64,000 bases of DNA from Terriglobia bacterium (GCA_965198225.1 CBDAOY010000009.1:352001-416000); one strand, 5' to 3'. Counted from the first letter of the stretch, positions 14,441-41,598 are shown. A program made the numbers and translations. Notes: generated by a model from the letters alone, not told the origin.

Positions 14441-14480
14441 AATTTCGCGCGCCGGACACAACTGTCCGTGAGAAACGACA

Positions 14481-14585: not shown

Positions 14586-16226
14586 TCAGAACCTTATGTG
14601 TATGCCGCCCTTGAGGAGCCGGGGGTATAAGGCCTGGACGGTCCTGCGGGACCCGAATGCGGGTTCGAAGAGGTTTCTGGCATCGACCACGGCCTGGAAT
14701 TTGGCCGGGAAGATCTTGAGGCTGGGTAAATCTTGCGCAATCGTGATGCTCAAGGTGGGATCATTAAACTCAGTGAACGGCTGGTACGGATCGACGGGCA
14801 CCATCGAATGCCCCGACGCCCAGCGGTACACGGCGGTGACCGCCGTCTGCGTGAGATCGATGTCGGTCTTGACCCGGGCGGTCACGACATGGAGGTTCTG
14901 GCGCTCGGCCTGGGTTCGGAGATCGTCGGGAGAGATGATGTCCGGATCGAATCCGACGGCGCTGGCAAAGGTGTAGCCCACACCGGCTTCGAAGCTCCGG
15001 AAAGTTCGATCCAGGTGCAATCGCAGGCCGGTCGAGGGAGCCTCACTGCCGTCGAAGAACACGATCGCCCGCCGCCCGTTGACGGCATCGACCAGGAACG
15101 CCTGGGTACCGAGCCGATCCCGGAACGCGGCTGCCGAGACCTGAAGGGATTCCGAGAAAACGTGAGATGCCCCAATCTCGTTGTGGGAGTACTGCTCGGC
15201 CTCGGGCGGGATGTAGACGGAGCGATCGAAATATTCACGACCGCGAATCGGGTCATCGGTGTCGGCAGGTGCTCTCTGAGAGAAGGAGGTCCGGAAGGTG
15301 GTCCGCGCCTGTGGCACCCACGAGACCCCGAACTCGGGCCGGACGTAACTGTTGCTCGTGACGCCCTCCGCCCGCCCGATGTCGGCGCCGTAGTTGAATA
15401 CGAGGTGGTCAGACCACTGCATCTGTTCCTGGTACTCAACTTTGACCTCGCGCGATTGACTGCCTGGGGTGTCAGCGCCGAGCATCGCACCCTGTCGGAC
15501 GTTGATCGCCAACGACGATCGCTTGCGGTCGCCCGGCGAAAACTCATAAGACGCTCCGAACCCGCGCGGCTGATCCGGATTTTCGGTGTACTGCCCCGTC
15601 AGCGTGACCTCCGCGCCGCCACCCAGCGGCATACTGACGGCAAACTGGGAACCGACCGAATCCGAAACTCCCGCCGATGTCTCCACCGCCGCCGAGTAGA
15701 GCTGGAAATAACCGGAGGTCTCCATCCCACCGATGACCTCGTCGACGCTGTCCTCGTCGGTCTCCGGCTCTTCCTCGACCATCCGCAGGATGGGGCGAGT
15801 CGAAGGCGAGCTGCGCAGCACCCACTTCATCTCTTCGAGGCTGCCGCGGCGCACCCCGCGACGGACGATTTCCATGGCGGTCTGGAGATTGATCGTCAGT
15901 GCGGCAGTCGTGCCGGCCGCCAGCTGGACACCCCCGGTGACAGCGGGAAGGAACCGTGGTTTTGTGACCTTGATCGTATAGTTTCCAGCCGCGAGGTTCC
16001 CGATAGAGAACAGGCCGCCACGATCGGTAAAGACGAGACGCTCGCGAAGGTTGGTGTCGGCCGCCTGGATTGCAACGAGCGCCCCAATCAGCGGAGATCC
16101 CGCGCTGTCTTGAACACGCCCGCGGAGGCTGGCCGAGCCCAGTGTCTGAGCCACCGCCGTGCCGGCCCCAAACGCGCACCAAACTACAACCGCGGCCAGG
16201 ATGGCGAACTTTCGCAGGTTTCTCAT
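14586..16226 (-). CDS. Outer-membrane beta-barrel (TonB-dependent receptor-like) with carboxypeptidase-regulatory-like N-domain
   Basis: Signal peptide; LRGRVQDSAGSPLIGA..TDRGGLFSI..LAAGNYTIKV; amphipathic strands; C-terminal Phe (GGIHIRF). Confidence 0.75.
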   Translation of the reverse strand: MRNLRKFAILAAVVVWCAFGAGTAVAQTLGSASLRGRVQDSAGSPLIGALVAIQAADTNLRERLVFTDRGGLFSIGNLAAGNYTIKVTKPRFLPAVTGGVQLAAGTTAALTINLQTAMEIVRRGVRRGSLEEMKWVLRSSPSTRPILRMVEEEPETDEDSVDEVIGGMETSGYFQLYSAAVETSAGVSDSVGSQFAVSMPLGGGAEVTLTGQYTENPDQPRGFGASYEFSPGDRKRSSLAINVRQGAMLGADTPGSQSREVKVEYQEQMQWSDHLVFNYGADIGRAEGVTSNSYVRPEFGVSWVPQARTTFRTSFSQRAPADTDDPIRGREYFDRSVYIPPEAEQYSHNEIGASHVFSESLQVSAAAFRDRLGTQAFLVDAVNGRRAIVFFDGSEAPSTGLRLHLDRTFRSFEAGVGYTFASAVGFDPDIISPDDLRTQAERQNLHVVTARVKTDIDLTQTAVTAVYRWASGHSMVPVDPYQPFTEFNDPTLSITIAQDLPSLKIFPAKFQAVVDARNLFEPAFGSRRTVQALYPRLLKGGIHIRF

Positions 16227-26870: not shown

Positions 26871-29537
26871 ATGTCGAGGCTCTACCACCTCCGGCGCGAG
26901 CTTGAATTCTCGACTCAGACCCGTCAGGGGAAGTCCTACCTGGTCGTCAAGGACCCGGTAACGAATCGCTACTTCAATTTCAAGGAGATGCAGGCCAGCA
27001 TCGTCGAACTGGTCCGGGAACCGATCGACATTGACTCGCTGGGCGCAGCGGCAGCCGCCCGGTTGGGCGCCACGGTCAAGGCGGCGTCCCTGGAAGGCTT
27101 CCTGAAATCGCTCGAAGAGAAGCACCTCCTCGACACGCCGACCGTCGCCGAAAAACTCGCCGTCTACAAAGAGCGCAAGCCACGGGGAAAAAGCCTCCTC
27201 TACATGCAGCTCGTGTCGCTCAATCCCGAGAGGGTCTTAGGCTATCTGCTGCCCAAGGTGGGGTGGTGCTTCACGCCGGCATTCAACGTGTTCGCTGCGA
27301 TCGCGATCATTTGCGGGTTCGTCATCACTTTCTTGAACGCAGGTACGTTAGCTCAGGAAACCCTTTCGCTCTTCAGCCTTCGCGGCGCGCTGATGACCTG
27401 GCTGGTCGTCGCCGCGGTGTTGACTGTCCACGAGTTTGCACACGGGCTGACATGCTGTCATTTCGGCGGCAAGGTGCAGTCGATGGGCTACATGCTCATT
27501 TATTTCAGCCCGGCCTTCTTCTGCGACGTGAGCGATGCCTGGATGTTCCCGACCCGTCGCGAAAGGATGTGGGTCACGTTTGCCGGCGGCTACTTTCAGC
27601 TCGTCATGTGGGGGCTCGCCGCGATCGCCTGGCGGGTCCTTGCCGAAGACACACTCGCCAGCGAAATCCTGCTGATCGTGATGGTGACTTCCGGAATCCA
27701 GACGCTGTTTAACTTCAATCCGCTCATCAAGCTCGACGGCTACTACATGCTGAGTGACTACCTGGAGATCCCGAACCTGCGGGAGAAAGGGTTCCGGGCG
27801 TTCCGGGCGTGGCTGGCGGGAACGGCCGATCCCCTTCTTGATACGCCGCAGCGTAAGGCGCTGCTGCGGTACGGAGCCATCTCGCTGACCTTTTCGACGT
27901 TACTGCTGTCGTTCGTTTACGTTAACATCTATCTGCTAGCGACCTCATACTTTGCTTTTGCGGGTCTGGTCGGGTTTTTGATGTTTTCGGGATACACATT
28001 GAGACGGACGGCGGCAGAACCGGTGGCAGGCGTTCGATCATTGATCACACGCGCGATGCTCCGCAAGTTCCGAAACTTCGGTGTAGGAGCGGCGGCGGTG
28101 CTGGCGATGATCATCGTCCCATGGGAGCTGAAGATTTCCGCCGATTTCCGAATCCTGCCGCTACAGGAATCGATCGTCCGCAGCGAAACCGCGGGTACCG
28201 TGGCCGAAGTGCTGATCCGCGAAGGAAGCCGCGTCGAGGCCGGCGAAGTGATCGTCCGCTTGTATGACTTCGACAAGCAGAAGGAGTTGGAAACCGTCTC
28301 GGGCGAACTGGAGCAGAAACAGGCCGAGTTGGCTCAGCTCCGGGTCGGGCCACGCACGGAGGAGATCGACCAGGCCGAAAAGCTCGTCGACACGAAGCGG
28401 GTCGAACTGGAGAACATCCGGAGAAACGTCCAACTCCAGAACCAGCTCGAGCAGGCGCTCACTACCAGGCAGACGGAACTGAGGCTCGCAGAAATCGAGT
28501 TACGGAGAACGACCGACCTTTTCATAGAGGAACTTGGTTCGAGGGTCGACATGGAGAAGGCACAGGCCACTGTGGAAGTCCGCCGCAGCGCGGTCGCGGA
28601 AGCCGAAGCGTCGGTTCAGATTCTGGCCGAGAAGAACGACCGCGAAGAAGACCTCAAGACCCGGGAACTTGCCGAGGCCGAGAGCGCGCTCGCGCTCCTG
28701 CGCGCCGGTTCGCGGCCCGAGGAAATCCAGCAGCGGGAAGCTGAAGTCAACATGCTGGAAGCCCGGCAGCGCATCCTGGGCGAAGAAATCAAGAAGAGCG
28801 AAATCCGCGCGGGAATTTCGGGAACGGTCACGACCCCGTTTGTCCAGAAGATACTCAACCGTCACCTGCAGGCCGGCGAAGAGGTCTGCCGCATCGTTGA
28901 CATGGACCGCGTCCGCGCCGAGATGTTCGTGCCGGAGCAGGAAATGGGTGATGTATCCGGAGTTAGCGTCGCGATGACGATGGAAGCAAGGGCACAGGAC
29001 GTCCGGGAACTAGACGTCACTCTCACTTTTCAGGGTGATGAGGTTCGGTTGGACGTCCCCGCTCTTGGCGCCGTCTACGTCGGGGCACTGGACAAGGGCG
29101 GCGAAACGATATCCGGGACATGGAGACATGCGGATGCTCAGCTCCCGCTCACCTTCGATAAGGATAAGATGGATTCGGAGGCGATGGCTGGTTCGTCGAG
29201 CGCCACCACCGCGTTGGCGGGAGTGTGGGACGGAACACTCGGCGAGGGGAAACTGAAGCTTCGGTTCGAGCCGGGCATGCCGGTCCGACTGAAAGCGCGC
29301 AGCTTCCCGACCCGCGAGTTCGAGGGCAACGTCGACTTCATCGCACCCGTAGCCGAGATGGTGGACAACGCGCGCGTCATCAAGATTCGAACCGAGCTGG
29401 ATAACGGCGACGGGATGCTCAAGCCGGACATGACGGGCGTCGCAAAGATCCACGCCGGCCGCCGCCAGGTCATCGCGCTGATGACCCGCCGCATAATCCG
29501 CTGGTTCCGAACTGAATCCTGGTACTACCTCCCCTGA
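26871..29537 (+). CDS. PqqD/RRE-like + M50 zinc metalloprotease + HlyD-type membrane-fusion protein
   Basis: N-terminal beta3-alpha3 pattern (YLVVKDPVTNRYFNF...FLKSLEEKHLL); HEFAH and NFNPLIKLDGYY M50 motifs; lipoyl-like half motifs, long coiled coil and LKPDMTG barrel. Confidence 0.9.
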   Translation: MSRLYHLRRELEFSTQTRQGKSYLVVKDPVTNRYFNFKEMQASIVELVREPIDIDSLGAAAAARLGATVKAASLEGFLKSLEEKHLLDTPTVAEKLAVYKERKPRGKSLLYMQLVSLNPERVLGYLLPKVGWCFTPAFNVFAAIAIICGFVITFLNAGTLAQETLSLFSLRGALMTWLVVAAVLTVHEFAHGLTCCHFGGKVQSMGYMLIYFSPAFFCDVSDAWMFPTRRERMWVTFAGGYFQLVMWGLAAIAWRVLAEDTLASEILLIVMVTSGIQTLFNFNPLIKLDGYYMLSDYLEIPNLREKGFRAFRAWLAGTADPLLDTPQRKALLRYGAISLTFSTLLLSFVYVNIYLLATSYFAFAGLVGFLMFSGYTLRRTAAEPVAGVRSLITRAMLRKFRNFGVGAAAVLAMIIVPWELKISADFRILPLQESIVRSETAGTVAEVLIREGSRVEAGEVIVRLYDFDKQKELETVSGELEQKQAELAQLRVGPRTEEIDQAEKLVDTKRVELENIRRNVQLQNQLEQALTTRQTELRLAEIELRRTTDLFIEELGSRVDMEKAQATVEVRRSAVAEAEASVQILAEKNDREEDLKTRELAEAESALALLRAGSRPEEIQQREAEVNMLEARQRILGEEIKKSEIRAGISGTVTTPFVQKILNRHLQAGEEVCRIVDMDRVRAEMFVPEQEMGDVSGVSVAMTMEARAQDVRELDVTLTFQGDEVRLDVPALGAVYVGALDKGGETISGTWRHADAQLPLTFDKDKMDSEAMAGSSSATTALAGVWDGTLGEGKLKLRFEPGMPVRLKARSFPTREFEGNVDFIAPVAEMVDNARVIKIRTELDNGDGMLKPDMTGVAKIHAGRRQVIALMTRRIIRWFRTESWYYLP

Positions 29538-29678
29538 GAAAATGCGCATATTTTGCGCCAACACCCTCTCCTGCGCCAATATTTTCGCCAAACCTTTGGT
29601 CAACCTAACGCGATTCCAAGAATTAATGTATTTTTTGGAAACTCCCGCTTATCCTTATTTCTGAAGGCTAAGGAAGTC

Positions 29679-29782
29679 GCCTTTGTAAAACGGCAAATTC
29701 GTCGAAAGACGAAGACGCAAAGCCACAAGGCTACAATCCCTTGAGGTTCGGATGGGATCATGCCGGTTGGGTTGCCAAAGGC
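29679..29782 (+). ncRNA. c-di-GMP-I (GEMM-I) riboswitch aptamer 1
   Basis: GGCAAA-TTCGTC-GAAA-GACGAA-GACGCAAAGCCAC...GGGTTGCC; P1 gcctttg/caaaggc; canonical G20, A47, C92 equivalents. Confidence 0.9.
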
Positions 29783-29835
29783 AGGGAAGTGGCAAACCGG
29801 CACGGAGCCTTCTGCCCTCCTCACCGAGAAGAATT

Positions 29836-29953
29836 CTCTGACAGATGCAAATCCGTCGAAAGGCGGGGCCGCAAAGCTTCGAGACCACCGGTTCGTCGGT
29901 TGATCTGTGGATCGGCCGGATAGATCACGTCGGTCGCGCTGCCTGACTAAGAG
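29836..29953 (+). ncRNA. c-di-GMP-I-like riboswitch aptamer 2 (U20 variant)
   Basis: TGCAAA-TCCGTC-GAAA-GGCGG-GGCCGCAAAGC...GCGCTGCC with an extended P3; T in place of G at position 20. Confidence 0.75.
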
Positions 29954-30014
29954 GTTCCACCTCGGGCTCACCTTTTCTTTTTTGCAACGAATCGAGAACT
30001 GGAGGTAGCTGGCT

Positions 30015-30038
30015 ATGTACGGCGTGATTTGGGTCTAG
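30015..30038 (+). CDS. Candidate 7-aa micropeptide MYGVIWV
   Basis: Strong SD GGAGGT 8 nt before ATG; first ORF after the riboswitches; followed by the hairpin acgacgtc-tcgcg-gacgtcgt (30062-30082). Confidence 0.45.
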   Translation: MYGVIWV

Positions 30039-30119
30039 CCCACACTAGAACTGGAAGTGATACGACGTCTCGCGGACGTCGTTTGAGGATCTTAACTCCG
30101 TCCGTCCCTGGAGAATAGA

Positions 30120-30212
30120 ATGAGTGAGAATGGTGTTATCCTGATCGATATTGAAATCGAGGAACTGGAACAGAAGATTGCCCCGAGTGGTTACTTGGCC
30201 AATGATGACTGA
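30120..30212 (+). CDS. Candidate 30-aa precursor peptide MSENGVILIDIEIEELEQKIAP-SGYLANDD
   Basis: SD GGAG before ATG; acidic leader ending in EELEQKIAP; followed by the hairpin gccgcgagc...gctcgcggc (30221-30253). Confidence 0.75.
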   Translation: MSENGVILIDIEIEELEQKIAPSGYLANDD

Positions 30213-30279
30213 TTGAGCTCGCCGCGAGCAAAGAGGCGTCCTCTAGCTCGCGGCTGCGACGTCTGTTTGGCCTCGCGAA

Positions 30280-32769
30280 GTGACGTGGAATAAGCTCACA
30301 GTCCAGGCGAAGGCATACCTCCGGAGCGTCTATGCAATAGGCGCTCTGCTGTCCTTTGTCTGCATGGCTGCGCCCGCCCGTATTTCAGAAACCCCTAATC
30401 GATTCGACTCCGAATGGGTTTTCCTGACACTGGTCTCGCTCTTTGTCGCGACGGTTACGGTTCGCTTACCTAGAACACCGTCCGCCGTGATATCGATCGG
30501 TGACGTCTTTACCATCCTGGCACTACTCCAGTTCGGCCCGGGACCCGCGCTCGTCATGTACTGGAGCCAGATCATCATCCTAATTGCAACCGACCAGGTG
30601 AAACGGCGTGGATGGCGGAGCTTCGTTCGAGTATCGGCCCTTTATCAACACTTCTTCTACTACAAGCACCTGTTCAACCTCGCCACGTGCGCGCTATCGA
30701 TCTCGGCCATGAGCGTGGCGCTGATGACGGCCGATCTGATTGGCCTGTCCGATCCCCTAGGTTTTGCTGTCAAACTTGCAGCCCTTGCAACAGTATGGTT
30801 TGCAGTCAATACGGGCACACTCTCTCTGGCGATTGCGCTTTTGGAAGACAAGTCCTTTTGGAAGACTTGGTTTGACGGCGTCAGTCTGTATGTCCTTAAT
30901 TTCTTTGGCTCGGCGGCGGCGGCGGGCTTGATGTCTCAGTTCTATGAACAGGCCGGTTTCTCGACTTTCCTGTTCGCCCTACCCATCGTTGTGGTCTTTT
31001 ACCAGCTCTACCGGTTCTACATCGAAAAGTTCGAGCACGCCCGGGCACACATTGCCGAGTTGAACAAGCTCTACCTCCAGACGGTCGAAGCGCTCGCGAC
31101 CGCCGTCGATGCGAAAGACCGCTACACCCACGGCCACATTCGACGCGTCCAGTGCTACGCGATCGAGCTGGCAAGGCGGATGGGAATGACCGACGAGTGG
31201 GACTTGATGGCCATTCGGTCCGGCGCCTTACTTCACGACATCGGGAAAATTGCGATTCCCGAGTATATCCTGAACAAGCCGACAGTGCTGACGGAGTCCG
31301 AGTTCGAAAAGATGAAGATTCATCCGTCGATCGGCGCCAGCATGCTCAAAGGCATCGAGTTCCCGTTTCCGGTTGAACCCCTGGTCAAGTCCCACCACGA
31401 GCGCTGGGACGGAAAAGGCTATCCAGAAGGGCTCAGCGGCGAAGAAATCCCGCTTAGCGCAAGGATCCTGTCGCTGGTCGACTGCTACGACGCCCTGACG
31501 ACCAATCGTCCATATCGCGCCCCCATGTCTCGCGACCAGGTCATCGAGTTCTTCCGGCGGGAGTCCGGAAGAGCCTATGATCCAGAGGTCGTCGAGACAT
31601 TCGTCGCAAACATCGGGAATTTGGAGGAGGAAGCCACAAAGATCGAAATTCCCGACTCTGATATCTGGGGAGGGCTCACCGTCGAGCGAAGGGTGAGCGA
31701 GAACGTGCGAGCCCTGGAGAAGGTGCAACCCACCGTCACGTACAGCGACGCAATGAACGTCACCCCGTTTGCGCAGACCGAACTCTACTCGGTCTTCGAG
31801 TTCGTACGTGCGGCAAATTGCCTCCGCACGGATGACGTCCTCGCCTTCATCGGGATCAAGCTCAGGAACTTGATCCAGTTCGACGCCGCAGTTTTCTACC
31901 TCGCGGATCTCGATCGCGGTGTTGTCGTCCCGTCGCATGTGTTGGGGCGGATGGGGGATGCCATCAAGGAGGGTGTACCCCTTCCGCTCGACCAGAAGCT
32001 GAGCGGGTGGGTCGCGGCCAACAACCAGGCCCTGCGCAACCTGCCGCCGTTCCCGGATTTCAGGAACTTCCACGATCCGAAGCCGCGGTTTGAGATCTCG
32101 AGCATCGCCCCGATGAACCATCGCGGCATCGTCGTCGGGTCCCTGGCACTGTACCGGGAAGCGAAGGAGAACTTTTCCGACCTGGAATTTCGGCACCTGG
32201 AGATTATTGCCGCGCAGGCCGCGGTCGCCTTGAATCGGGCTCGCGAACAAGAGGGCACCGAATCCGCGCTCTTCGACGAGCTCACCGAACTGCCGAACGG
32301 CTACCAGATGTACCTGATGTTCGATCAGGTCGCCACAGATGCGCTACGCTATGAATACCCGTTGGCGCTGATGGCCTTCCGGTTGGACGAGTTCGCGGAG
32401 ATCAAGCGACGTTATGGACATCTCAGCACAGCCGAAGTCGTGAGGTTCATCTCGCGCTATCTGAAGGACGAAGTCCGGGATACGGACATTCTCGTGCGTT
32501 ATGCGGACGACCAGTTCCTGACGCTGAACCCCAAAATGAGCCGGGATCAATCGGAGGTTCTAAAGTCCAGAATCCAGAGCGAGCTGGACCGGCACAAGTT
32601 CATGATCCGCCACGGGATCGAACTGGCGCCAAGGGTCTCGATCGGCATCGCCGAGTTCCCAGAGGAAGCCACAAAGCTCGAGGACCTGCTTTCCATCGCC
32701 GAATGGCGCCTCACGGAAGACGAGCGACTCCGGTCGATGGCTCGCCGGACACTGTCTTTCCCCTCCTGA
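30280..32769 (+). CDS. Membrane-sensor HD-GYP c-di-GMP phosphodiesterase with GAF and degenerate GGDEF domains
   Basis: About 7-8 N-terminal TM helices; KDRYTHGH, LHDIGK, HHERWDGKGYPEGL, DCYDALTTNRPYR; GGDEF site reads RYADDQF. Confidence 0.92.
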   Translation: MTWNKLTVQAKAYLRSVYAIGALLSFVCMAAPARISETPNRFDSEWVFLTLVSLFVATVTVRLPRTPSAVISIGDVFTILALLQFGPGPALVMYWSQIIILIATDQVKRRGWRSFVRVSALYQHFFYYKHLFNLATCALSISAMSVALMTADLIGLSDPLGFAVKLAALATVWFAVNTGTLSLAIALLEDKSFWKTWFDGVSLYVLNFFGSAAAAGLMSQFYEQAGFSTFLFALPIVVVFYQLYRFYIEKFEHARAHIAELNKLYLQTVEALATAVDAKDRYTHGHIRRVQCYAIELARRMGMTDEWDLMAIRSGALLHDIGKIAIPEYILNKPTVLTESEFEKMKIHPSIGASMLKGIEFPFPVEPLVKSHHERWDGKGYPEGLSGEEIPLSARILSLVDCYDALTTNRPYRAPMSRDQVIEFFRRESGRAYDPEVVETFVANIGNLEEEATKIEIPDSDIWGGLTVERRVSENVRALEKVQPTVTYSDAMNVTPFAQTELYSVFEFVRAANCLRTDDVLAFIGIKLRNLIQFDAAVFYLADLDRGVVVPSHVLGRMGDAIKEGVPLPLDQKLSGWVAANNQALRNLPPFPDFRNFHDPKPRFEISSIAPMNHRGIVVGSLALYREAKENFSDLEFRHLEIIAAQAAVALNRAREQEGTESALFDELTELPNGYQMYLMFDQVATDALRYEYPLALMAFRLDEFAEIKRRYGHLSTAEVVRFISRYLKDEVRDTDILVRYADDQFLTLNPKMSRDQSEVLKSRIQSELDRHKFMIRHGIELAPRVSIGIAEFPEEATKLEDLLSIAEWRLTEDERLRSMARRTLSFPS

Positions 32770-32927
32770 CTTTCTCTTTGTCCGACAAAAGTCGCGTTTT
32801 TTGCGTTCCTTGTTCCGCCAAAGCGCGATAAATTGTCGCGGCTCTCGTTCTAACAATCTCCAGATGCTGAATGACAGCTCTGGCACCGGCAGTGCTGGTG
32901 ATCTGACGGGAGGAAGGCCCTCAATCA

Positions 32928-35900
32928 TTGCAGCGTTTCCTGACAGATCGCTTCGAAGTTCGCCGAATCCTCCGCCGCTCGAAGCACGTGACGTCGTTTG
33001 TGGGACACGACCGTTGGTGGGGACGGGACGATGTCTTTGTGAAGTGCATCCGAAGTCGAGCGTGCTGGATCGACCCGGCTTTCCCGGAATCACTGGCTCG
33101 CTACCGCGGCCTGGTTCACCCGCTGATCGGGAACATCTACGACGCCGGGTTTTCCCCAAGGAAAGACTTCTACTACGTACGACACCACGCGGCTCAAGCG
33201 GAGAGTCCCGCGAGTCCCGCACAACTCCTGCGAGTAGCTCCCCAGATAGTCGCCGCCTGCGCCTTGCTTCATTCAAGAGGTCTGGTCCACGGTCGGATCA
33301 AGCCAAACAACATCATCGTCCACGATAGCACCTGTCACGTTGTCGACGGTGGACTCCCACCTCTGCACGAATGGAATCTCGATGTGGACGACGTCCACTA
33401 CCGCGCACCGGAGCTTCTGGAAGGGGGTGAACCAACTATCGAGACCGATCTCTACTCACTCGGTGCGGTACTGTACAGGGCTTATTCAGGTCGCACTCTA
33501 TTTGAAGATCCCAGCATCGAACTTCTCAGAAACAAGTACGCCAACGCGAAACCTGAGCCTCTGAACAATGTCTGCGATGCGCCGAAAGCCGTCAGCGATC
33601 TCGTCCTGGGCCTGGTCGGCCGGAACTCGAAGGCAAGAAAAGAGGTGTTCACGGATGTCCTGAAGCTCTTCCCTGCTAGCTCAAGCCGCGTGATGCACGC
33701 GCCGTTTGTGGGTCGAGAAAGAGAGTTGCAGGAAGCGATAGAGCTTCTAGGTTCGAGTGGTCGCGACATACGGCTGCTGGTTGTCGAGGGAGAGGCTGGT
33801 GCCGGAAAGACAAGGCTGGTCGAAGAGCTCGGGTTTCGTCGCGCCCTCGCTTCCAGCGACTTCTCAGTCGGCCGGAGCTTTGAGAGGGAAAACCGTCAGT
33901 TCGAGCCGCTTCTTCAGGTGTTCTCCCAGAAGTTGGACCGGCGCGATGTGCTTTTCAAACGCTGGGAGGCGGCCGAGTTTCCACGCTTTCGTCACTCTCT
34001 GGATCACCTTCTGTCAGAAACGCTGGATGAGGGGCTGCCGCACGGGCTGTCTGCCGGCAAACTCGTGACAGACCTCGTGGGAGTGACGATTTCTCTAACC
34101 AATCAGGCACGGCGCAGCACTGTTGTTCTCGAAGACGCGCACTGGGCCGACGAAGGCACGCTCAAAGTACTCGAACAAATCCTTCTTCGCGGGGAGGAGG
34201 CGAACCTCTGCTTTCTCCTGACCGCCCGGTCGGGTGAGATTCAGGGACCGCTGCGCCGGTTGCTGAGCGGTCCGGCACCTTCCGGAATCACAATCCATCG
34301 AATCTCGCTCGAACCGCTGACTGCGACCGCGGCTCTCAGCCTTGCTGAGAGTCTTTGCGGCAATGCGGGGCACGCCGCACGGATCGTGGAAAAGGCCTGC
34401 GGAAACCCACTGTTCCTGGAAGAGTACTCCCGACACCGAAACATCCGAGGCAAGAGTCAGCCATCCAGCGTAAAGGATGTGCTCGTCGACAAGGCGACGA
34501 GTCTGACCAAAGGGCTCAGAGGTGCTATCGAGGCACTTTCGCTCTTTCCGAAACCCATGTCCTTCGACGAAGCAAAGGGCGCGATCGCGTCTCTGGTACC
34601 TCGGCCCGATGGGCAACTGGAAGAGCTGCTCGAAGCAGGCATTGTCGTGTCGGACGGTTCAAACATCCGGTTTCGTCACGACGGGATTCGGGAAGCGGTG
34701 TACAAGAGACTAGCGCTCAAGCGCCGCCGACAATTTCACCAAACCGTATGCGACCGGCTCCTTCAAGAGCCATCCGACGACGAGGCCATTGGATATCACG
34801 CCGAACGGGCCGGCTTACCCAAGAAGGCCGCCCGGGCCTACATCGCTGCCGCGGACCGCAATCGTGAGCATCACAATTACCAGACTGCAGCCGAGCTCTT
34901 TTCCTTCGCGCGCAGGTGTTTTGTCCGCTCTAGGCAGAAGGTGCCTCATTCGTTGGACCTGTCGTACAGCCGCTGCTTGATGTCGATCGGAAGAAAGTAC
35001 CACGCGCGGAAGCTTCTCCATCGAATCGTAGCGACTAGCACCGATCACGGCGTTCGGGCCCTGGCATACGGCTATCTCGCCGGCTCTTCGCCGGACGATC
35101 CCGAATCGTGTCTGGCATTCTTTCGCTCACAGCTAGCGGAACTCCCGAAGGGATCGGACAAACTCTCCTCGGTACACTTGGGCCTGTCTCAGGCTCACGC
35201 TGTCGCCGGGCACGCCCGGGAAGCCACGAAGTGCCTTTCGAGCGCCGAACGACTATTCGCAGGGAATTCCGATGCGACGAGGCTTCGGTCATTTCTTGCC
35301 ATAAAGGGGGTCGTTCTCATTGCGCTTTGCGAGTACCGGCAAGCGTTATCCGTATTGCCCAGCCAGGCTGTCGGAGACCATCAACCTCGCGTTCTAAACA
35401 ATAGAGCCGTATGCATGGAGCATCTCGGCCAGTTGGATGCAGCCTGTGCGTACCAACGCGAAGCACTCGACCTGTCTCGCCGCCAAGGCATGCTGGAAGG
35501 GGAACTGCTGTCACTTGCTAACATCGGCGCTTTCGAAACCAAGAGGGGCAACTTCGAACTAGCTGCGAGCAGTTTCCGGGAGGCTGAAAGTTTCTGTGCT
35601 TCCATGAACCTTTATCGAGACGGGGATCGGAAAAATCTGCCGCTCCCCGCTGCCGATCAGGCAGCCCTCCGCATGGAAATGGGACAATACGCCGAGGCGC
35701 GGAAGCTGTTCGTGTCGGCTTTCAGATGGCTCAAACGGGACCGCTCGAGCCAGAGCGCGATCTGGGCCGCCCTGAAACGGAGCGAGTTCTACACGCGAAC
35801 TGGTGAGATGCAGCTTGCGGCACCGGTCATCGATTCCGTTAGCGCCAGCGAGCTCTTTGACACCGACTTCCTGAAGGTGGAGCGGGCCCTGATCGAGGCC

Positions 35901-37973
35901 ATTTTACTCAGGCTCCCTGAAATAGACCGGCTTCGGCTTCTCGACGCCGCCCTGCCACTCACCGCGTCTCTCGGTACGCTCTACCAGCGCTGTCGCGTCC
36001 TGATCGAGTCGGCGGCGCTTCTAATCGACGCGGCGCGTGACGAAGAGGCCCGGACGCGCGTCGCGGAGGCTCTGAAGCTGGCTCGGCGACACGGATACAG
36101 ACCGCTCGAAGCAAGTGCTTTGCTAATCAAGGGTTCAGTAACACGGAAGAAGCGCGCCCGGCATGAATACCTGCTACAGGCTTACCGGATCGCGTCCGAT
36201 ACCCCGCTGCCGGAAATCGCAGCCGAAAGCGCGCTTCGGATCGGAGAGCATCAGCTTGAATTGAATAATCTTTTCAACGCGCGTGAATACCTGTCGCGAA
36301 GCGTCTCTTTGACCAAGTCGCTGGCGGGCGGATTGCCGGCTCGGGCTCGAAATCGTTACCTTCTCGTTCCATGGAGGCAGCAAGCGATGAAACTACTGGC
36401 CAGCGTCGAGAATCAGCTACCTGCTCCCGGACGTCCAACCCCGATAAAGGACCCTCAGGATCGCCCGCTCTTCAAAGTGGCTTACGAAACAACGATGTCT
36501 CTCGGCGCTGCCAAGGGGGTCGAAGAGTACGTTCGTGCCTTGAACGGCGGGATCAAACGGGCGCTCAAGTGCAACGTCGCGTTCATGCTAACCGCCCGAG
36601 ACAAGATCGAGTTTCACGCTCTGGAAGCCCCGCCTGACGACGGCCTATCCAGAACGCTTTCCAAACTGTACGACAAGGTTCAGGACGGTCCTTTCTTCGG
36701 TCGAAGGGAAAATGTTCAAGAACGGGGTTCCGACAGAAGCGGCACAATGGCGTGGATTCCGCTGACAGCAGCCGGCTCCCGACTCGGAGGTCTGTATGTC
36801 AACATCGGAAAGAGGAGATTCAGCGAAGCAGAAATGGAGTTTCTTACGATGATCGGAATCATCGCGGCGAATGCGCTTGCCTCAATTCTGGCGTCTGACC
36901 ACCTGCCTCGCCAAAAGCGTCGCAAAAGATTCCATTACAAAGATATTGTTGGGGTTTCACGGGAAATCGAAGAAGTATGCGCCCAGATCGAGATTGCCGC
37001 CGGCAATCCTGCCACCGTGCTCATCGAAGGTGAGAGCGGAACGGGCAAGGAACTGGTAGCCCGGGCTATCCATGACCACAGCGCGCGGCGCGCGGGGCCG
37101 ATGGTGACTGTCGATTGTGGTTCGATCCCGGAAACGCTGATCGAGAGTGAGATGTTTGGAAGTCGACGGGGATCATTCACCGGAGCCACGGCGGACCGTC
37201 GGGGCCTGATTGAATCTGCCCACAGGGGAACGCTGTTCCTCGACGAAATCGCGAATACCAGCCCCGCCCTGCAGGCCAAACTTCTTCGAGTGCTGCAGGA
37301 GAAGGAGGTACGACGGCTCGGAGAAACCAAGGGCCGGGCCGTCGACATCCGTCTTTTGGCCGCGACCAACGCAAACCTCGAAAGGCTGGCTGAACAAGGT
37401 CAATTCCGCCAGGACTTGTATTTTCGGTTGAAAGTCCTGTACATCCAGATCCCTCCCCTCCGCGAGCGAAGGAAAGACATTCCTGAAATCGCACGCGCTT
37501 TTCTCCGGCAGCTAACCCAGGCCAACGCTACGAACAAGCGCTTCGGTCGCGGGATTCTGGACCGCATTGCGGCCGGACACTACCCTGGTAATGTTCGGGA
37601 ACTGCAGAACCTCGTGGAGCGCGCCTACTTCTCGGCAACCGCCGGCGACACGATCAAGAAGGTATCCATCGAAGTTGTTCCGGCTCGGCGCAAGGACTCA
37701 AATGAAGTCCAAGCCTGGTTCAAGGACCTGACGGAAGGACGCAAGGACTTCTGGGTCGACATCCACGCCCGCTACAAGCAACGCGACATTTCTCGCGAAC
37801 AGGTCATTGCGTTGATGGGCCTCGGCTTGAAGGAGACGCGCGGATCTTATAAGTCTGTGGGTGAACTGTTCCATGTCCAGGAGAGTGACTATCGACGCTT
37901 CATGGATTTCCTCCGCCGCAACAAGTGTCAGCCCGATTTCAGACCGTATCGAAGGTTAGAAGGCCCACGCTAG
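32928..37973 (+). CDS. Multidomain sigma54 activator: pseudokinase + STAND-type P-loop + TPR + GAF-like + AAA+ + atypical HTH
   Basis: HGRIKPNN/DGG/YRAPE/DLYSLG kinase remnants; FVGRERE, GEAGAGKT, LEDAHWAD, GNPLFLEE; GESGTGKE, GSFTGA, YPGNVRELQN; C-terminal TRGSYKSVGELF..DYRRFMDFL. TTG start is uncertain. Confidence 0.9.
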   Translation: MQRFLTDRFEVRRILRRSKHVTSFVGHDRWWGRDDVFVKCIRSRACWIDPAFPESLARYRGLVHPLIGNIYDAGFSPRKDFYYVRHHAAQAESPASPAQLLRVAPQIVAACALLHSRGLVHGRIKPNNIIVHDSTCHVVDGGLPPLHEWNLDVDDVHYRAPELLEGGEPTIETDLYSLGAVLYRAYSGRTLFEDPSIELLRNKYANAKPEPLNNVCDAPKAVSDLVLGLVGRNSKARKEVFTDVLKLFPASSSRVMHAPFVGRERELQEAIELLGSSGRDIRLLVVEGEAGAGKTRLVEELGFRRALASSDFSVGRSFERENRQFEPLLQVFSQKLDRRDVLFKRWEAAEFPRFRHSLDHLLSETLDEGLPHGLSAGKLVTDLVGVTISLTNQARRSTVVLEDAHWADEGTLKVLEQILLRGEEANLCFLLTARSGEIQGPLRRLLSGPAPSGITIHRISLEPLTATAALSLAESLCGNAGHAARIVEKACGNPLFLEEYSRHRNIRGKSQPSSVKDVLVDKATSLTKGLRGAIEALSLFPKPMSFDEAKGAIASLVPRPDGQLEELLEAGIVVSDGSNIRFRHDGIREAVYKRLALKRRRQFHQTVCDRLLQEPSDDEAIGYHAERAGLPKKAARAYIAAADRNREHHNYQTAAELFSFARRCFVRSRQKVPHSLDLSYSRCLMSIGRKYHARKLLHRIVATSTDHGVRALAYGYLAGSSPDDPESCLAFFRSQLAELPKGSDKLSSVHLGLSQAHAVAGHAREATKCLSSAERLFAGNSDATRLRSFLAIKGVVLIALCEYRQALSVLPSQAVGDHQPRVLNNRAVCMEHLGQLDAACAYQREALDLSRRQGMLEGELLSLANIGAFETKRGNFELAASSFREAESFCASMNLYRDGDRKNLPLPAADQAALRMEMGQYAEARKLFVSAFRWLKRDRSSQSAIWAALKRSEFYTRTGEMQLAAPVIDSVSASELFDTDFLKVERALIEAILLRLPEIDRLRLLDAALPLTASLGTLYQRCRVLIESAALLIDAARDEEARTRVAEALKLARRHGYRPLEASALLIKGSVTRKKRARHEYLLQAYRIASDTPLPEIAAESALRIGEHQLELNNLFNAREYLSRSVSLTKSLAGGLPARARNRYLLVPWRQQAMKLLASVENQLPAPGRPTPIKDPQDRPLFKVAYETTMSLGAAKGVEEYVRALNGGIKRALKCNVAFMLTARDKIEFHALEAPPDDGLSRTLSKLYDKVQDGPFFGRRENVQERGSDRSGTMAWIPLTAAGSRLGGLYVNIGKRRFSEAEMEFLTMIGIIAANALASILASDHLPRQKRRKRFHYKDIVGVSREIEEVCAQIEIAAGNPATVLIEGESGTGKELVARAIHDHSARRAGPMVTVDCGSIPETLIESEMFGSRRGSFTGATADRRGLIESAHRGTLFLDEIANTSPALQAKLLRVLQEKEVRRLGETKGRAVDIRLLAATNANLERLAEQGQFRQDLYFRLKVLYIQIPPLRERRKDIPEIARAFLRQLTQANATNKRFGRGILDRIAAGHYPGNVRELQNLVERAYFSATAGDTIKKVSIEVVPARRKDSNEVQAWFKDLTEGRKDFWVDIHARYKQRDISREQVIALMGLGLKETRGSYKSVGELFHVQESDYRRFMDFLRRNKCQPDFRPYRRLEGPR

Positions 37974-38329: not shown

Positions 38330-38998
38330 ATGGAACCGGTGGTAAAGGTCTCCGGCGTCCGAAAGGTTTACGAGGGGGAAGGCGAACCGGTTGTTGCGTT
38401 GAACGACGTCTCGCTCGAGGTCGACTCCGGCGAATTCGTTGCCCTGATGGGCCCCAGCGGCTGCGGCAAATCGACCCTCCTGCACATCATCGGCGCGATG
38501 GATCGTCCGTCGGCGGGCAAGGCCTGGATCCAAGGCGCGCCCATACACAACCTACCCGAAGAAGAGCTGACCGGAATCCGTCGCACACGAGTGGGCTTCG
38601 TGTTTCAGTTCTTCTACCTTCTGCCCACGCTCACGCTTGAAGAAAACGTCGCCTTGCCCCTGTTGCTCGCGAACGGGCGGCATGTGGATTCGGACCGGGT
38701 TCAGGCCCTGATTGAAACCGTCGGCCTGACCGACCGGCGTTCAGCAACCCCGAACCAGCTCTCGGGTGGGGAAATGCAACGGGCTGCGCTGGCAAGAGCA
38801 GTCGTCCACCGGCCGCCGCTCGTCGTGGCGGACGAACCGACCGGCAATCTGGATTCCGATAACGGTCGCGTGATCCTCGAGCTGCTCCGGAAGTTGTCGA
38901 GAGAGGGCACGACCGTCGTCATGGCCACCCACAGCGATGCGGCTGCCGCGTACGCGGCGCGTGTGTTACGCCTGAGGGATGGGAAACTGGTCGAATGA
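38330..38998 (+). CDS. ABC transporter ATP-binding protein (LolD/MacB-like, AttE-like)
   Basis: [26 protein letters not shown]. Confidence 0.95.
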   Translation: MEPVVKVSGVRKVYEGEGEPVVALNDVSLEVDSGEFVALMGPSGCGKSTLLHIIGAMDRPSAGKAWIQGAPIHNLPEEELTGIRRTRVGFVFQFFYLLPTLTLEENVALPLLLANGRHVDSDRVQALIETVGLTDRRSATPNQLSGGEMQRAALARAVVHRPPLVVADEPTGNLDSDNGRVILELLRKLSREGTTVVMATHSDAAAAYAARVLRLRDGKLVE

Positions 38999-41598
38999 CG
39001 CGCTTTGCCCGGCTCTTCCACCGCTACATCCTCCGCGATCTCGCGCGCAATCCCATCCGGACGCTCCTCACCCTGACCGGGGTGGCGCTGGGCATTGCGG
39101 TCGTCGTCGGGGTGCACGTGGCCAACGACCGGGCGATCTCCTCGTTCAACGACTCGCTGCGGATCCTGAGCGGCCAGGCCGACCTTCAGATTTCTGCCAA
39201 CGGGCTGCAACTGGACGAGGAGCTGATCGGCGAGCTCTCCTGGGTCTGGGACGTGGGCGCGATGACGGCGATCGTCGAAGGCCGGGTCGACCTGGACGCC
39301 TCGCCCAACCCGATCGAGCGGCAATCACTCCGGATCTTCGGTATCGATCTGCTATCCGACGCTCCGTTCCGAACCTACACACTCACCGAAGGCGACGACC
39401 TCGGCCTGGACATCACCCGTGAGCAGTTCATCGACTTGCTGGTTGAACCCGACACCATCATCATCCCCTCACTCCTGGCCGAAGAGTTCGCCCTCGGCGT
39501 CGGCGACACGATTCAATTCCTTGTTTCGAACCGCTGGCGGGACTTTCGGGTCGGCGCCATCCTGCAGGACGAAGGCGTGGCCGAAGCCTTCGGCGGGCGG
39601 ATCGTTTTCATGGACATCGCCGGAGCGCAGACGGCTCTGAACAAGATCGGTTGGATCGACCGGATCGAAGTCCTCCTGGACGACCCGGCGCTGGCGGATG
39701 CGGTCGAAGAGCGGATCCGAGTCCAACTCCCTGCATCGGTCATCGTCTACCGGCCCGAAGAGGCCGCCGCCTACAACGAAAAGATGGTCCGCGCCTTCCG
39801 CTACAACCTGACCGCGCTCTCCTACATCGCCCTCGTCGTCGGCATGATCCTCGTCTACAACACGCTGAACATCGCCGTCGTTCGGAGGCGGGCCGAAATC
39901 GGCGCGCTCCGCACGTTAGGAACTTCGCGGACGACCATCAAATGGATGTTCCTGATCGAAGCGACCGCCTTCGGTGTGATCGGCGCCGCGCTCGGGGTCT
40001 GGGGGGGGGAGTTCCTCGCCGCTGCAGCCGGTGCTCTGGTGTCGCAGACCATCTCCGGGCTTTACACCGGCGTCGCCGTCATCCCGTCACTGACACGCTC
40101 CGACCCTATCTTCTACATCGAGATGCTGTTGCTCGGCGGTGTCCTGGCGGCAATCTCGGGAACGGGGCCCGCGCTGCGGGCCACCCAGGTCTCGCCGGTG
40201 GGCGCACTGCGCGAGAACGTCCTCGGCACTATTCGCGCAACGCGGCTGCGGGTTCAGGTCTTCGGCGGAATCGGTGCGCTGATCCTCGGTACCGTTCTCG
40301 CACTCGGTCCGCCGATCGAAGGTTTCCCGTTTCTCGGGTACGCATCGGGCGTGTCGTTCATCGCCGGCTTCGGACTGCTCTCACCCCTGCTCGCACGGAT
40401 GCTTCTAAAACTGATCCGGCGCCCGTTAACGACGGCGCTTCCGGCCGAAGGTCGCCTGGCCGTCCAGACGATCGAAGGTAGTCTCGGCCGGGTCGTCGTC
40501 GCGGTGATGTCGCTTGCGATCGCCGTAGCGATGCTGATCAGCGTGGCGATCATGGTCGCGAGCTTCCGCGACACGGTGATCGTCTGGATCGACCAGACCT
40601 TGAAGGGCGACCTCTACCTGCGTCCGGCCGCGTTCGGCAGCAACGGGGGGCGGAACGTCCTGGAGAGCGAGACCCTGCACGTGCTCGAAACCATGCCGGC
40701 GATCGAAGCCATCGACCGGTTCCGCTCGATGACGATCGACTACGGAGGCTTCCCTGCCTTCCTGGCTGCCGGAGAGTTTGGCACCGTCGCTTCTCACAGC
40801 AACCTCCTCTTCATGAACGGCCGCCAGACGGCGGCGGTCGCCAAACGGTTGATCGGGGCCGACCGCGTGGTCGTTTCCGAGCCCTTCGCCGTACGGCACG
40901 GGGTTCGTGCGGGCGATCGGATCATGCTCCCGACCCCGGCAGGGATGGAGCCGTTCGAGGTCGAAGCCCTCTTTTATGACTACTCATCAGAGGGCGGGCT
41001 CGTAGTAATGGATCGTGGCACGTACCTCACGAAATTCGAGGACCCCGACGTCAGCAACGTTGCGCTCTACCTGAAACCCGAGGCTGACCCGATCACGACC
41101 CGAGCCGAGATCGCGGCCGCGCTCCCCGACACTCAGCTTCGGATCGCAACGAACGGCGAGCTGCGGGGGCAGGTGTTGCGCGTCTTCGACCAGACGTTCC
41201 AGATCACCTACGCCCTGGAGGTCATCGCGATGGCCGTAGCGGTGCTGGGAATCGCCAATACGCTAGCCGCGCTCATCATCGAGCGCCGTCCCGAAATCGC
41301 CATGTTGCGATTCATCGGGGCCGCACGGTCACAAATTCGCCGGGTCGTCGTCCTGGAATCGGGCCTGATCGGCGTGCTCGGCGGCGCGATCGGCCTGGTC
41401 CTGGGCATCCTTCTGTCGCTGCTCCTGATCTATGTCATCAACTTCCAGTCGTTCGGCTGGACCATCCAGTTCACAATGCCGCTGGGCTTTCTGGCGCAAG
41501 CGCTTGGGGTGGTGCTGGTCGCCACCGTCGCGGCCGGGCTCTACCCGGCATCACTGGCACTGAAGATGGATCCGATCAAGGGGATCCGGGCGGAGTAG
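38995..41598 (+). CDS. ABC transporter permease (duplicated MacB-PCD/FtsX, AttF/G-like)
   Basis: Two FtsX-like halves (RRAEIGALRTLG, RRPEIAMLRFIG), VINFQSFGWTI; ATGA overlap with the ATPase gene. Confidence 0.92.
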   Translation: MTRFARLFHRYILRDLARNPIRTLLTLTGVALGIAVVVGVHVANDRAISSFNDSLRILSGQADLQISANGLQLDEELIGELSWVWDVGAMTAIVEGRVDLDASPNPIERQSLRIFGIDLLSDAPFRTYTLTEGDDLGLDITREQFIDLLVEPDTIIIPSLLAEEFALGVGDTIQFLVSNRWRDFRVGAILQDEGVAEAFGGRIVFMDIAGAQTALNKIGWIDRIEVLLDDPALADAVEERIRVQLPASVIVYRPEEAAAYNEKMVRAFRYNLTALSYIALVVGMILVYNTLNIAVVRRRAEIGALRTLGTSRTTIKWMFLIEATAFGVIGAALGVWGGEFLAAAAGALVSQTISGLYTGVAVIPSLTRSDPIFYIEMLLLGGVLAAISGTGPALRATQVSPVGALRENVLGTIRATRLRVQVFGGIGALILGTVLALGPPIEGFPFLGYASGVSFIAGFGLLSPLLARMLLKLIRRPLTTALPAEGRLAVQTIEGSLGRVVVAVMSLAIAVAMLISVAIMVASFRDTVIVWIDQTLKGDLYLRPAAFGSNGGRNVLESETLHVLETMPAIEAIDRFRSMTIDYGGFPAFLAAGEFGTVASHSNLLFMNGRQTAAVAKRLIGADRVVVSEPFAVRHGVRAGDRIMLPTPAGMEPFEVEALFYDYSSEGGLVVMDRGTYLTKFEDPDVSNVALYLKPEADPITTRAEIAAALPDTQLRIATNGELRGQVLRVFDQTFQITYALEVIAMAVAVLGIANTLAALIIERRPEIAMLRFIGAARSQIRRVVVLESGLIGVLGGAIGLVLGILLSLLLIYVINFQSFGWTIQFTMPLGFLAQALGVVLVATVAAGLYPASLALKMDPIKGIRAE

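Follow-up and report, generated by a model that had tools for sequence, protein, structure and literature searches.

A candidate peptide-signaling locus associated with tandem cyclic di-GMP riboswitches in a Terriglobia bacterium

Analysis of a 64,000-nucleotide stretch of DNA from a Terriglobia bacterium (GCA_965198225.1 CBDAOY010000009.1:352001-416000, part of a 6.41-Mb genome; referred to below as the window) revealed a locus at positions 26871 to 37973 that appears to link a ribosomal peptide signal with a nucleotide second messenger in a manner not described before. Five components lie there co-oriented on the plus strand: a fusion of a RiPP (ribosomally synthesized and posttranslationally modified peptide) recognition element (RRE) with an M50 metalloprotease and a HlyD-type adaptor, two cyclic di-GMP (c-di-GMP) riboswitch aptamers of the GEMM-I class, two very small open reading frames (ORFs), a membrane HD-GYP protein, and a giant sigma-54-dependent enhancer-binding protein (EBP). 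This inventory had been proposed in a preliminary description of the window, and each part was recovered at its position. The locus is best explained as a ribosomal peptide-signal module wired into c-di-GMP signaling, a reading to which we assign a probability of roughly 55%. The preliminary description had gone further, proposing that c-di-GMP controls small peptides that are cleaved and exported by the M50-HlyD protein and sensed by the HD-GYP protein, and this interpretation was partly supported. Protein-level conservation of the small ORFs extends across genera, and in two different arrangements they are genetically tied to the RRE-M50-HlyD gene; the leader motif belongs to the class that, according to the daptide report cited below, is used by an RRE-fused site-2 protease; orthologues of the HD-GYP protein and the EBP travel with the system; and one relative has a terminator that shares a strand of the second aptamer.

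The shorter small ORF (positions 30015 to 30038, plus strand), referred to as the micro-ORF, encodes the 7-residue peptide MYGVIWV, a leaderless copy of an xVIWx core, and is preceded by GGAGGT 7 nt upstream and followed by a 9-bp hairpin (30062 to 30082, plus strand). The longer one (30120 to 30212, plus strand; GGAGAA upstream) encodes a 30-residue leader peptide, MSENGVILIDIEIEELEQKIAP followed by SGYLANDD, with the cut site predicted by analogy to lie before SGYLANDD. Between this gene and the HD-GYP gene are two hairpins (30221 to 30277, plus strand); for the fragment 30221 to 30254, z was -2.5, and 3 of 200 shuffles folded equally well. The leader ORF was found in 18 of the 20 loci screened, and both misses were contigs that end right after the micro-ORF. 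Alignment of 17 peptides revealed invariant residues M1, E14, E15, L16, E17, K19, A21, and P22 and a variable tail past Ala-Pro; the motif EELExK(I/V/T)AP, of the ELExMEAP class of daptide leaders, was present in all 17, and DNA alignments demonstrated third-position variation throughout EELExKxAP. Micro-ORFs were detected in 13 of the 20 loci (13 genomes), one or two per locus, amounting to 15 copies. Their sequences follow the pattern M(x0-6)[YFC][GA]VIW[VI], the core starting with Tyr or Phe in all except MTCGVIWV of genome G015 (Cys), and a purine-rich Shine-Dalgarno sequence, GGAGG-like or similar, stands before every copy. As read off the sequences, Val is encoded by GTG, GTA, GTC, or GTT and Ile by ATT or ATC, and all three stop codons are used. 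Searching the 6.4-Mb genome with a regular expression for the leader gave two matches, as did one for the micro-ORF with its Shine-Dalgarno sequence; in each case, one match was at the locus and the other was chance-like. Judged by this protein-level conservation across relatives, both small ORFs, described previously as preceded by Shine-Dalgarno sequences and followed by hairpins, are real conserved genes.

Natural fusions and flanking arrangements tie the two small ORFs together. In genome G004, a single peptide joins leader, Ala-Pro, and SAQWEVNGRTAKKEHYSVIWI; in G009, a YGVIW unit is fused to the N terminus of the leader; and in G023 and G030, a micro-ORF lies on each side of the leader ORF. 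The comparison identifies a Trp-containing xVIWx peptide as the ancestral core, so SGYLANDD may be a degenerate tail. Of the two peptides put forward as cores in the preliminary description, MYGVIWV carries the conserved core, and SGYLANDD apparently does not represent it. The predicted cores comprise 6 to 8 residues in most genomes. The alignments showed a putative precursor family consisting of an (I/V)EELExK(I/V/T)AP leader and a very short, usually Trp-containing hydrophobic core. The NCBIfam model Amm_Lyn_leader matched 10 precursor peptides only below threshold (13 to 15 bits versus 30).

A second family of the same class (genomes G034, G042, G050, and G058), together with a locus from a public metagenome-assembled genome (L088), harbors the same pair of genes in another order. 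The M50-HlyD proteins of these loci are about 28 to 33% identical to that of the window, and in each locus a single peptide gene immediately precedes the M50-HlyD gene, whereas the peptide genes are downstream in the window's family. The leaders, MEE(I/N)(L/V)VLEVEELE(E/D)(K/I)(V/I/T)AP, are followed by NVIWAN, NVIWVS, NVIWTGN, NILWGV, or NALWGG, and the peptide MEEILVLEVEELEEKVAP followed by NVIWAN unites leader and xVIWx core in one product. In all four second-family genomes and in L088, the genes for the EBP, the peptide, a small protein with two transmembrane segments, M50-HlyD, an S8 subtilase, the HD-GYP protein, and OppBC follow each other in this order on one strand. An Rfam scan of the second-family loci matched no family and detected no riboswitch. 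These comparisons show, in both gene orders, a precursor family that is the cognate partner of a daptide-type RRE-fused M50 protease itself fused to HlyD.

Several further features of the second-family loci were observed. A conserved two-hairpin element, with some compensatory changes among only four sequences, lies in the 5' leader of the peptide gene (L143:5870-5975, with aligned counterparts in L140, L141, and L088; columns 469 to 544 of alignment A5); it occupies the position of the riboswitches in the window's family and had no Rfam match. The ORF of 67 to 70 aa between the precursor and M50-HlyD genes (L143:6258-6467 and L142:9656-9859) has two hydrophobic segments and no counterpart seen in the window; its product could be an immunity-like or accessory membrane protein. 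The S8 subtilase and the OppB/OppC-type permease (L143:9507-11429 and 14110-16110) have orthologues in L140, L141, L142, and L088 and possibly serve extracellular peptide trimming and reimport.

Synteny in relatives, on which the proposal of a joint system depended, confirmed that the module recurs in two gene orders with conserved small ORFs. Of the 20 loci fetched for the window's family, 9 have the HD-GYP gene behind the peptide genes, and in 8 of these the EBP gene comes next; the remaining 11 loci showed contig ends (four loci), a truncation (G027), absence of the gene within the fetched stretch (G005, G012, G015, G021, and G024), or a rearrangement (G019). Within this family, 13 of the 14 genomes with an HD-GYP orthologue of at least 51% identity (that of the window included) also have M50-HlyD. 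The precursor and protease pair was shown by this comparison to be inherited, as far as gene content indicates, with the membrane HD-GYP-GAF-GGDEF protein and the kinase-STAND-TPR sigma-54 activator, and peptide, protease-adaptor, phosphodiesterase, and activator are, by the same token, one predicted module in two gene orders. Within the window's family, the peptide genes have come to lie behind tandem c-di-GMP-I riboswitches, with the core-only MYGVIWV added; the riboswitches, the leaderless micro-ORF, and the inactive GGDEF domain are innovations of this family, and so, for the window at least, is the inactive kinase. Interruptions of the M50-HlyD gene occur in G002, G003, G020, G015, G021, and G024, caused by a frameshift or stop codon in some and by kilobase-sized insertions or truncations in others; frameshifts and stops in single- or few-contig assemblies are possibly sequencing errors. 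In G002 and G020, about 2 kb is inserted between the riboswitches/peptide genes and the HD-GYP gene.

The protease-adaptor gene (positions 26871 to 29537, plus strand) encodes 888 aa comprising an RRE (residues 1 to about 100), an M50/site-2 metalloprotease (about 135 to 420), and a HlyD-type periplasmic adaptor (about 430 to 888). The Pfam model Peptidase_M50 matched with 25.1 bits, just under its cutoff of 27.2, and the zinc-site motifs HExxH (H187, E188, and H191) and NPLxKLDG (N283, P284, L285, K287, D289, and G290), which place the protein among M50 proteases, are invariant in 11 orthologues. The adaptor part matched HlyD_D23 (63.4 bits) and HlyD_3 (53.6 bits) of Pfam as well as RND_mfp of NCBIfam (94.4 bits versus a cutoff of 94.9), matches that place it among the adaptors with lipoyl-like, coiled-coil, and beta-barrel domains. 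The best NCBIfam match of the protein was daptide_HExxH (NF041824; 236.1 bits, E = 6.7e-70, residues 29 to 374; equivalog cutoff, 300), and the match to NF058609 was weak (37.5 bits versus a cutoff of 225). AlphaFold2 modeled the N-terminal 115 aa with a predicted local distance difference test (pLDDT) value of 87 as three strands followed by helices. Searching the Protein Data Bank with Foldseek revealed PqqD (5sxy), the lasso-peptide RREs TbiB1 (5v1v and 5v1u), and 6jx3 as the closest folds (E = 6e-3 to 3.5e-2; TM score normalized to the target, 0.63 to 0.73); the Pfam PqqD model gave 19.7 bits, under its threshold of 23.4. These results support a predicted RRE fold for the N-terminal domain and, with the zinc motifs and the HlyD domains, bear out the proposed fusion.

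Modeling of the leader with the N terminus of the M50 protein had been suggested as a check. Complex prediction with the RRE (115 aa, 11-row alignment) and the 30-residue peptide (17-row alignment) gave a score of 0.50, compared to 0.02 for the best control, with contact agreement between runs of at least 79% and a partner pLDDT of at least 56. In the calibration, 58 of 80 solved complexes reached the mark, as did 2 of 110 mismatched pairs; the band up to 0.60, in which the present score falls, holds only 7 of the 80 solved complexes, yet both passing mismatches. The predicted complex lends weak support to the pairing, and because solved RRE-leader complexes exist, part of it may reflect likeness to them.

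Two further observations concern this gene. The HlyD part contains an insert of about 100 aa (residues 696 to 800, approximately; window positions 28956 to 29270) that is absent from all orthologues; it is 71% identical, with segments permuted, to part of a 234-aa secreted repeat protein whose gene lies at another site of this genome (L005:1003-1707, contig C6 of G000), and either a genuine domain insertion or a chimeric assembly could account for it. Just past the stop codon, a direct repeat resembling TGCGC(N)ATATTTT(C)GC(G)CC occupies positions 29542 to 29600; among the aligned relatives it is not conserved.

Relatives of the RRE-M50-HlyD protein are widespread, with 585 confirmed in many phyla. 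In a multiphylum sample of 80 of these loci kept for a small-ORF screen, same-strand small ORFs of the strict EELE.[KR]IAP type lay near the gene in 16; the other 64 had none matching this strict pattern. In Gemmatimonadota, Vicinamibacteria, Verrucomicrobiia, and other groups (L070, L071, L072, L073, L105, L067, L068, L079, L138, and L136), one to three precursor genes flank the RRE-M50-HlyD gene, and their products, with EELE(Q/E)RIAP leaders and Gly/Asn/Pro-rich cores of 30 to 40 aa, apparently form a large undescribed precursor family. A phylum-wide search with a degenerate leader DNA pattern was discarded: it matched 35 of 301 genomes, and a reversed-pattern control was about as frequent, so the count is uninformative. 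Among five hand-picked hits of this pattern with ..RIAP translations from other Acidobacteriota, three were beside an M50-HlyD gene and two were chance-looking.

Between the M50-HlyD gene and the small ORFs, aptamer 1 (positions 29682 to 29779, plus strand; 76.2 bits, E = 3.5e-13) and aptamer 2 (29836 to 29946, plus strand; 44.9 bits, E = 1.6e-5) both exceeded the gathering score of 35 bits of the Rfam family RF01051, as the preliminary description had it, and c-di-GMP is their predicted ligand. They are the only RF01051 matches in the whole 6.41-Mb genome. Aptamer 2 has a 37-nt insert in P2 and a U in place of the first G of the consensus GGCAAA (29845 to 29851); this position is A in aptamer 2 of G003 (L041, around position 6015) and G in most relatives. 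The corresponding G-to-A change (G20 of Vc2) shifts GEMM-I selectivity toward 3'3'-cyclic GMP-AMP, and the ligand choice of aptamer 2 may therefore differ. RF01051 was detected in 16 of the 60 genomes searched (that of the window included), and in 11 relatives it lies directly 3' of the M50-HlyD gene on the same strand, with two aptamers in eight and one in three. A crude regular expression for the aptamer core found it only in loci of the window's family, with none in loci of distant phyla.

In G023, a canonical intrinsic terminator, GGGCUGCC-AGAGGC-ACAC-GCCUC-GGCAGCCC-UUUUCUAUUUUUU (z = -3.4), comes after aptamer 2, and the 3' strand of the aptamer forms its 5' arm; the alignment shows these arms in G003, G004, G009, and G030 as well. 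Because the arm is shared, ligand binding should prevent termination, and the tandem riboswitch would be an ON switch for c-di-GMP. In the window, a weak terminator-like element with a 5-bp hairpin (GAGGU/ACCUC) and a U tract (29951 to 29983, plus strand) is a remnant of the strong terminator of relatives. G027 keeps the riboswitches and both peptide genes next to an HD-GYP gene cut to 72 aa beside genes of the opposite strand, which points to the peptide genes as the main cargo under regulation. An invariant motif, GTATTTTT (29628 to 29635, plus strand; columns G91 to T97 in an alignment of 10 intergenic regions), located about 50 nt 5' of aptamer 1, is a candidate -10-like promoter element, and a similar TGTATTT occurs upstream of the peptide gene in two of four second-family loci.

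The gene behind the leader peptide (positions 30280 to 32769, plus strand) encodes a membrane sensor, an HD-GYP domain, a GAF domain, and a degenerate GGDEF domain (Pfam HD_5, 129 bits; GAF_2, 30.9; GGDEF, 88.8). A crude hydropathy scan indicated about five to six hydrophobic segments in residues 17 to 243; Pfam returned nothing for this membrane domain at E values up to 5, and the only lead was a MASE9-like one from the Atlas (0.93). Conservation of THGH, LHDIGK, and HHERWDGKGYP extends to all 15 orthologue rows, out of 16, in which the match includes them, and the HD-GYP phosphodiesterase domain is intact as judged from these motifs. The GGDEF active site, which in the window reads YADDQ(F), lacks the signature of an active diguanylate cyclase; it reads YSNDQ, YSEDQ, YANDE, YGSEE, YAHDE, YTNEE, or YASDE in nine relatives of the window's family, and GGDE(F) is kept in five rows from the second family and L088. 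The RxxD I-site (RDTD in the window) is kept in all rows. The architecture proposed for this protein, multiple membrane segments with HD-GYP, GAF, and inactive GGDEF domains, was thus recovered.

The EBP gene (positions 32928 to 37973, plus strand) encodes a kinase-like domain, a STAND NTPase, TPR repeats, a GAF-like domain, a sigma-54 AAA+ domain, and a helix-turn-helix domain. Pfam matched Pkinase, AAA_16, TPR, and Sigma54_activat (223 bits), and the GSFTGA loop of enhancer-binding proteins is present, in line with the giant sigma-54 activator described before. The catalytic loop HGRIKPNN, found with DGG in place of the HRD and DFG motifs of active Ser/Thr kinases, indicates that the N terminus is probably a pseudokinase; the kinase of the second-family orthologue is intact (HADLKPEN and DFG). 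No membrane segment was seen before residue 1305. A sigma-54 promoter-like site with one mismatch, TGGCACCGGCAGTGCT (32881 to 32896, plus strand), lies 32 nt before the EBP start codon; it is weaker in near genera and absent in others. Window-wide, sigma-54 promoter matches were rejected as a signal, their number (27) being not above chance (21.3 expected). No such promoter was found before the riboswitches or peptide genes in 13 loci of the window's family and four second-family loci, and none before the M50-HlyD gene.

Comparison with known systems revealed that the locus works like a leader-peptide/site-2-protease maturation system and is an undescribed variant. The nearest parallel is the daptides. 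According to their report, daptide clusters were found via an RRE fused N-terminally to an intramembrane site-2 protease, and the precursors carry an N-terminal motif, ELExMEAP, with numbering that sets Pro at -1 (bioRxiv 10.1101/2023.03.08.531785). As in that account of MpaA/DapA and MpaP/DapP, an RRE here precedes an M50/site-2 protease, and EELExKIAP belongs to the ELExMEAP class with Pro at the predicted position -1. The differences are that the NF041824 score stays below its cutoff (236 versus 300 bits), that the protease is fused to a HlyD adaptor, that the cores have 6 to 8 aa where daptide cores are long aliphatic helices, and that the host is a Gram-negative acidobacterium. None of the 17 peptides ends in Thr, the site of the Dmp modification; they end in D, K, I, E, F, N, S, or G. 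No Pfam or NCBIfam domain for DapB (DUF-RRE), the oxidoreductase DapC, the aminotransferase DapD, or the methyltransferase DapM was found in ORFs of at least 150 aa between 11.7 and 48.2 kb of the window, and daptide-type tailoring enzymes were seen in none of the loci examined in detail. An identity with daptides was rejected on the missing C-terminal Thr and the lack of tailoring enzymes in the neighborhood; the earlier statement that no RiPP-modifying enzyme is encoded at the locus holds within about 12 kb.

The M50 proteases of epipeptides and pearlins (YydH/EpeP/LiaK and TglG/TmoG) mature, and possibly export, ribosomal peptides (PMC10885120). The present locus shares with these a membrane M50 protease for a ribosomal peptide and the weak NF058609 match; it differs in that a radical-SAM epimerase or PEARL enzyme is lacking, NF058609 is far under its cutoff, and Amm_Lyn_leader is subthreshold. 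No C39 peptidase-ABC (ATP-binding cassette) exporter is encoded in the locus, and the conserved motif ends in Ala-Pro rather than GG or GA, unlike the leaders of double-glycine and peptidase-containing ABC transporter systems. Short hydrophobic pheromones of Gram-positive bacteria, such as the enterococcal sex pheromones and SHP/Rgg, are matured by the M50 protease Eep. They resemble the present system in their very short, hydrophobic, aromatic peptides, the M50 membrane protease, and the receptors encoded nearby, and they differ in that a signal peptide or short propeptide takes the place of the RRE-bound leader; here, moreover, no RRNPP receptor is present, the adaptor suits a Gram-negative envelope, and the c-di-GMP link is new. 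Tandem GEMM arrangements were reportedly described by Weinberg in 2007 and Sudarsan in 2008. The present aptamers agree with known GEMM-I riboswitches in scoring over the gathering threshold and, in relatives, in a terminator-type expression platform; they differ in that the first genes downstream are 7- to 44-aa peptide genes of a leader-peptide/protease system. In the main texts of the open-access literature searched, no description of an RRE-M50-HlyD protein with such precursors, of the motif strings, or of a riboswitch before such peptide genes was found, in agreement with the earlier statement that no system of this architecture is known.

In the proposed mechanism, high c-di-GMP would stabilize the aptamers and block the terminator, allowing transcription of the peptide genes and read-through into the HD-GYP and EBP genes. 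The leader would dock on the RRE, and the M50 domain would cut after Ala-Pro; the position of the cut follows by analogy from the daptide Pro at -1 together with the same motif class and the closest NCBIfam relative. The core would leave by the HlyD-coupled route, in near genera perhaps with a MacB-type ABC pump, and the hydrophobic peptide or peptides would be read by the HD-GYP membrane domain, the TPR-STAND activator, or both. The HD-GYP protein, with its I-site-bearing inactive GGDEF domain as c-di-GMP sensor, would then lower c-di-GMP and turn the riboswitches off, so that the outcome would be a negative-feedback pulse with sigma-54 transcription as output. That the peptides are exported, that the HD-GYP protein senses them, and that the module serves quorum sensing is what we infer from this arrangement. 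The HD-GYP membrane domain, designated the receptor in the preliminary description, has a competitor in the cytoplasmic STAND-TPR activator, which is as plausible. The complete circuit, a riboswitch-gated peptide pheromone of a Gram-negative soil phylum in which c-di-GMP turns on the 7-residue and precursor genes, a daptide-type machine matures and exports the product, the HD-GYP protein and/or the EBP sense it, and c-di-GMP is reset, is offered as a tentative model and clearly less probable than the general signaling reading.

Several results weigh against this reading. The tail of the window's leader peptide, SGYLANDD, is without the Trp-hydrophobic core seen elsewhere, and MYGVIWV is leaderless whereas the protease/exporter route is RRE dependent. 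The HD-GYP protein was not found in 14 of the 27 genomes of the family with M50-HlyD (that of the window included), many of these assemblies being fragmented. The same membrane-HD-GYP-GAF-GGDEF architecture occurs with 31 to 35% identity in four genomes of other families that have no M50-HlyD match, and the architecture itself therefore also exists outside the module. Decay of the system is frequent, with M50-HlyD split or truncated in G012, G015, G021, and G024. The outer terminator stem of the window is mutated and aptamer 2 scores low, so that c-di-GMP control may be weaker in the window than in relatives; of the proposed c-di-GMP control, the riboswitch placement and the terminator platform of a relative remain in its favor. 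Neither the peptide genes nor the M50-HlyD gene has a sigma-54 promoter before it, so that no EBP target is apparent there. The small protein with two transmembrane segments of the second family would also fit an immunity protein, and the related genomes are not independent samples.

Other explanations account for parts of the evidence. The peptides may act inside the cell, with the leaderless micro-peptide, and perhaps also the cleaved core, being the cytoplasmic ligand of the STAND-TPR sensor of the EBP; c-di-GMP would then act through riboswitch and peptide on transcription, and M50-HlyD would only remove or export the ligand. This explanation is favored by a micro-ORF without leader or signal sequence, by an EBP that combines a STAND NTPase and TPR with no membrane segment up to residue 1305, and by the adjacency of the EBP and peptide genes in the second family. 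It is made unlikely by the leader of the ancestral form, whose orientation toward a membrane protease-adaptor implies release outside the cytoplasm, and by the secreted-type S8 protease in the second-family module. To the same low degree, the product may be a minimal RiPP-like bacteriocin free of tailoring, a small peptide with antimicrobial or membrane activity whose production the HD-GYP protein and the EBP only regulate. Protease and leader are of the daptide type, and daptides are hemolytic according to their report (bioRxiv 10.1101/2023.03.08.531785); the HlyD adaptor, the MacB-type ABC pump in near genera, and the small ORF with two transmembrane segments beside the second-family precursor would likewise suit a bacteriocin. 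Predicted cores of only 6 to 8 residues in most genomes, the lack of tailoring enzymes in the scanned neighborhood, an intergenic region in the window without an immunity-like ORF, and the tight linkage to two sensory proteins, more typical of signaling, speak against it.

An improbable explanation, well behind these two, is that an HD-GYP/EBP operon under riboswitch control uses the small ORFs in cis, as upstream ORFs or attenuator peptides, and has M50-HlyD as a neighbor by coincidence. The small ORFs do lie in the 5' leader of the HD-GYP gene, each followed by a hairpin, and c-di-GMP riboswitches are known in front of c-di-GMP turnover genes. However, the same peptide family lies upstream of M50-HlyD, about 5 kb from the HD-GYP gene, in the second family; the amino acid sequence is conserved, beyond the reading frame alone; the leader motif class is, by the account of daptides cited above, one recognized by RRE-fused proteases; and in G015 and G027 the peptide genes persist with no HD-GYP gene next to them.

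As a signaling module, the locus joins c-di-GMP riboswitches, RiPP-type leader-peptide recognition, and sigma-54/STAND signaling in a compact and testable form. The pairing of an RRE-fused site-2 protease with an ELEx..AP leader is known from daptides of Gram-positive bacteria; in the form of a HlyD fusion, this pair is widespread among Gram-negative phyla. The conserved 7-codon gene, apparently under clear purifying selection, belongs to a size class missed by routine annotation. Cell-cell signaling in Acidobacteriota is almost unknown, and YGVIWV-type and NVIWAN-type peptides with candidate receptors are now defined. If the complete circuit is true, this would be the first riboswitch directly controlling ribosomal signal peptides, and the 585 RRE-M50-HlyD relatives would constitute a large tailoring-free branch of the RRE/leader-peptide world.

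Analysis of the surrounding genes revealed a histidine kinase, GroEL, ClpB, Hsp20, and QueA upstream of the module. The kinase (PDZ-7TM-GAF-PAS; positions 11696 to 14497, minus strand) is encoded 12 kb upstream, with the Hsp20, ClpB, and GroEL genes between it and QueA; no link between this kinase or the heat shock genes and the module was seen. QueA was rejected as a part of the system, being a conserved neighbor in the window's family only. Downstream are an ABC pump, a CrtC-like lipocalin, and an M16 peptidase. The pump consists of an ABC ATPase (38330 to 38998, plus strand) and a duplicated FtsX/MacB-type permease (38995 to 41598, plus strand). It was found downstream of the EBP in G002, G003, and G020 only and was rejected as a core component on this distribution; where present, it is a possible inner membrane partner of the HlyD adaptor.

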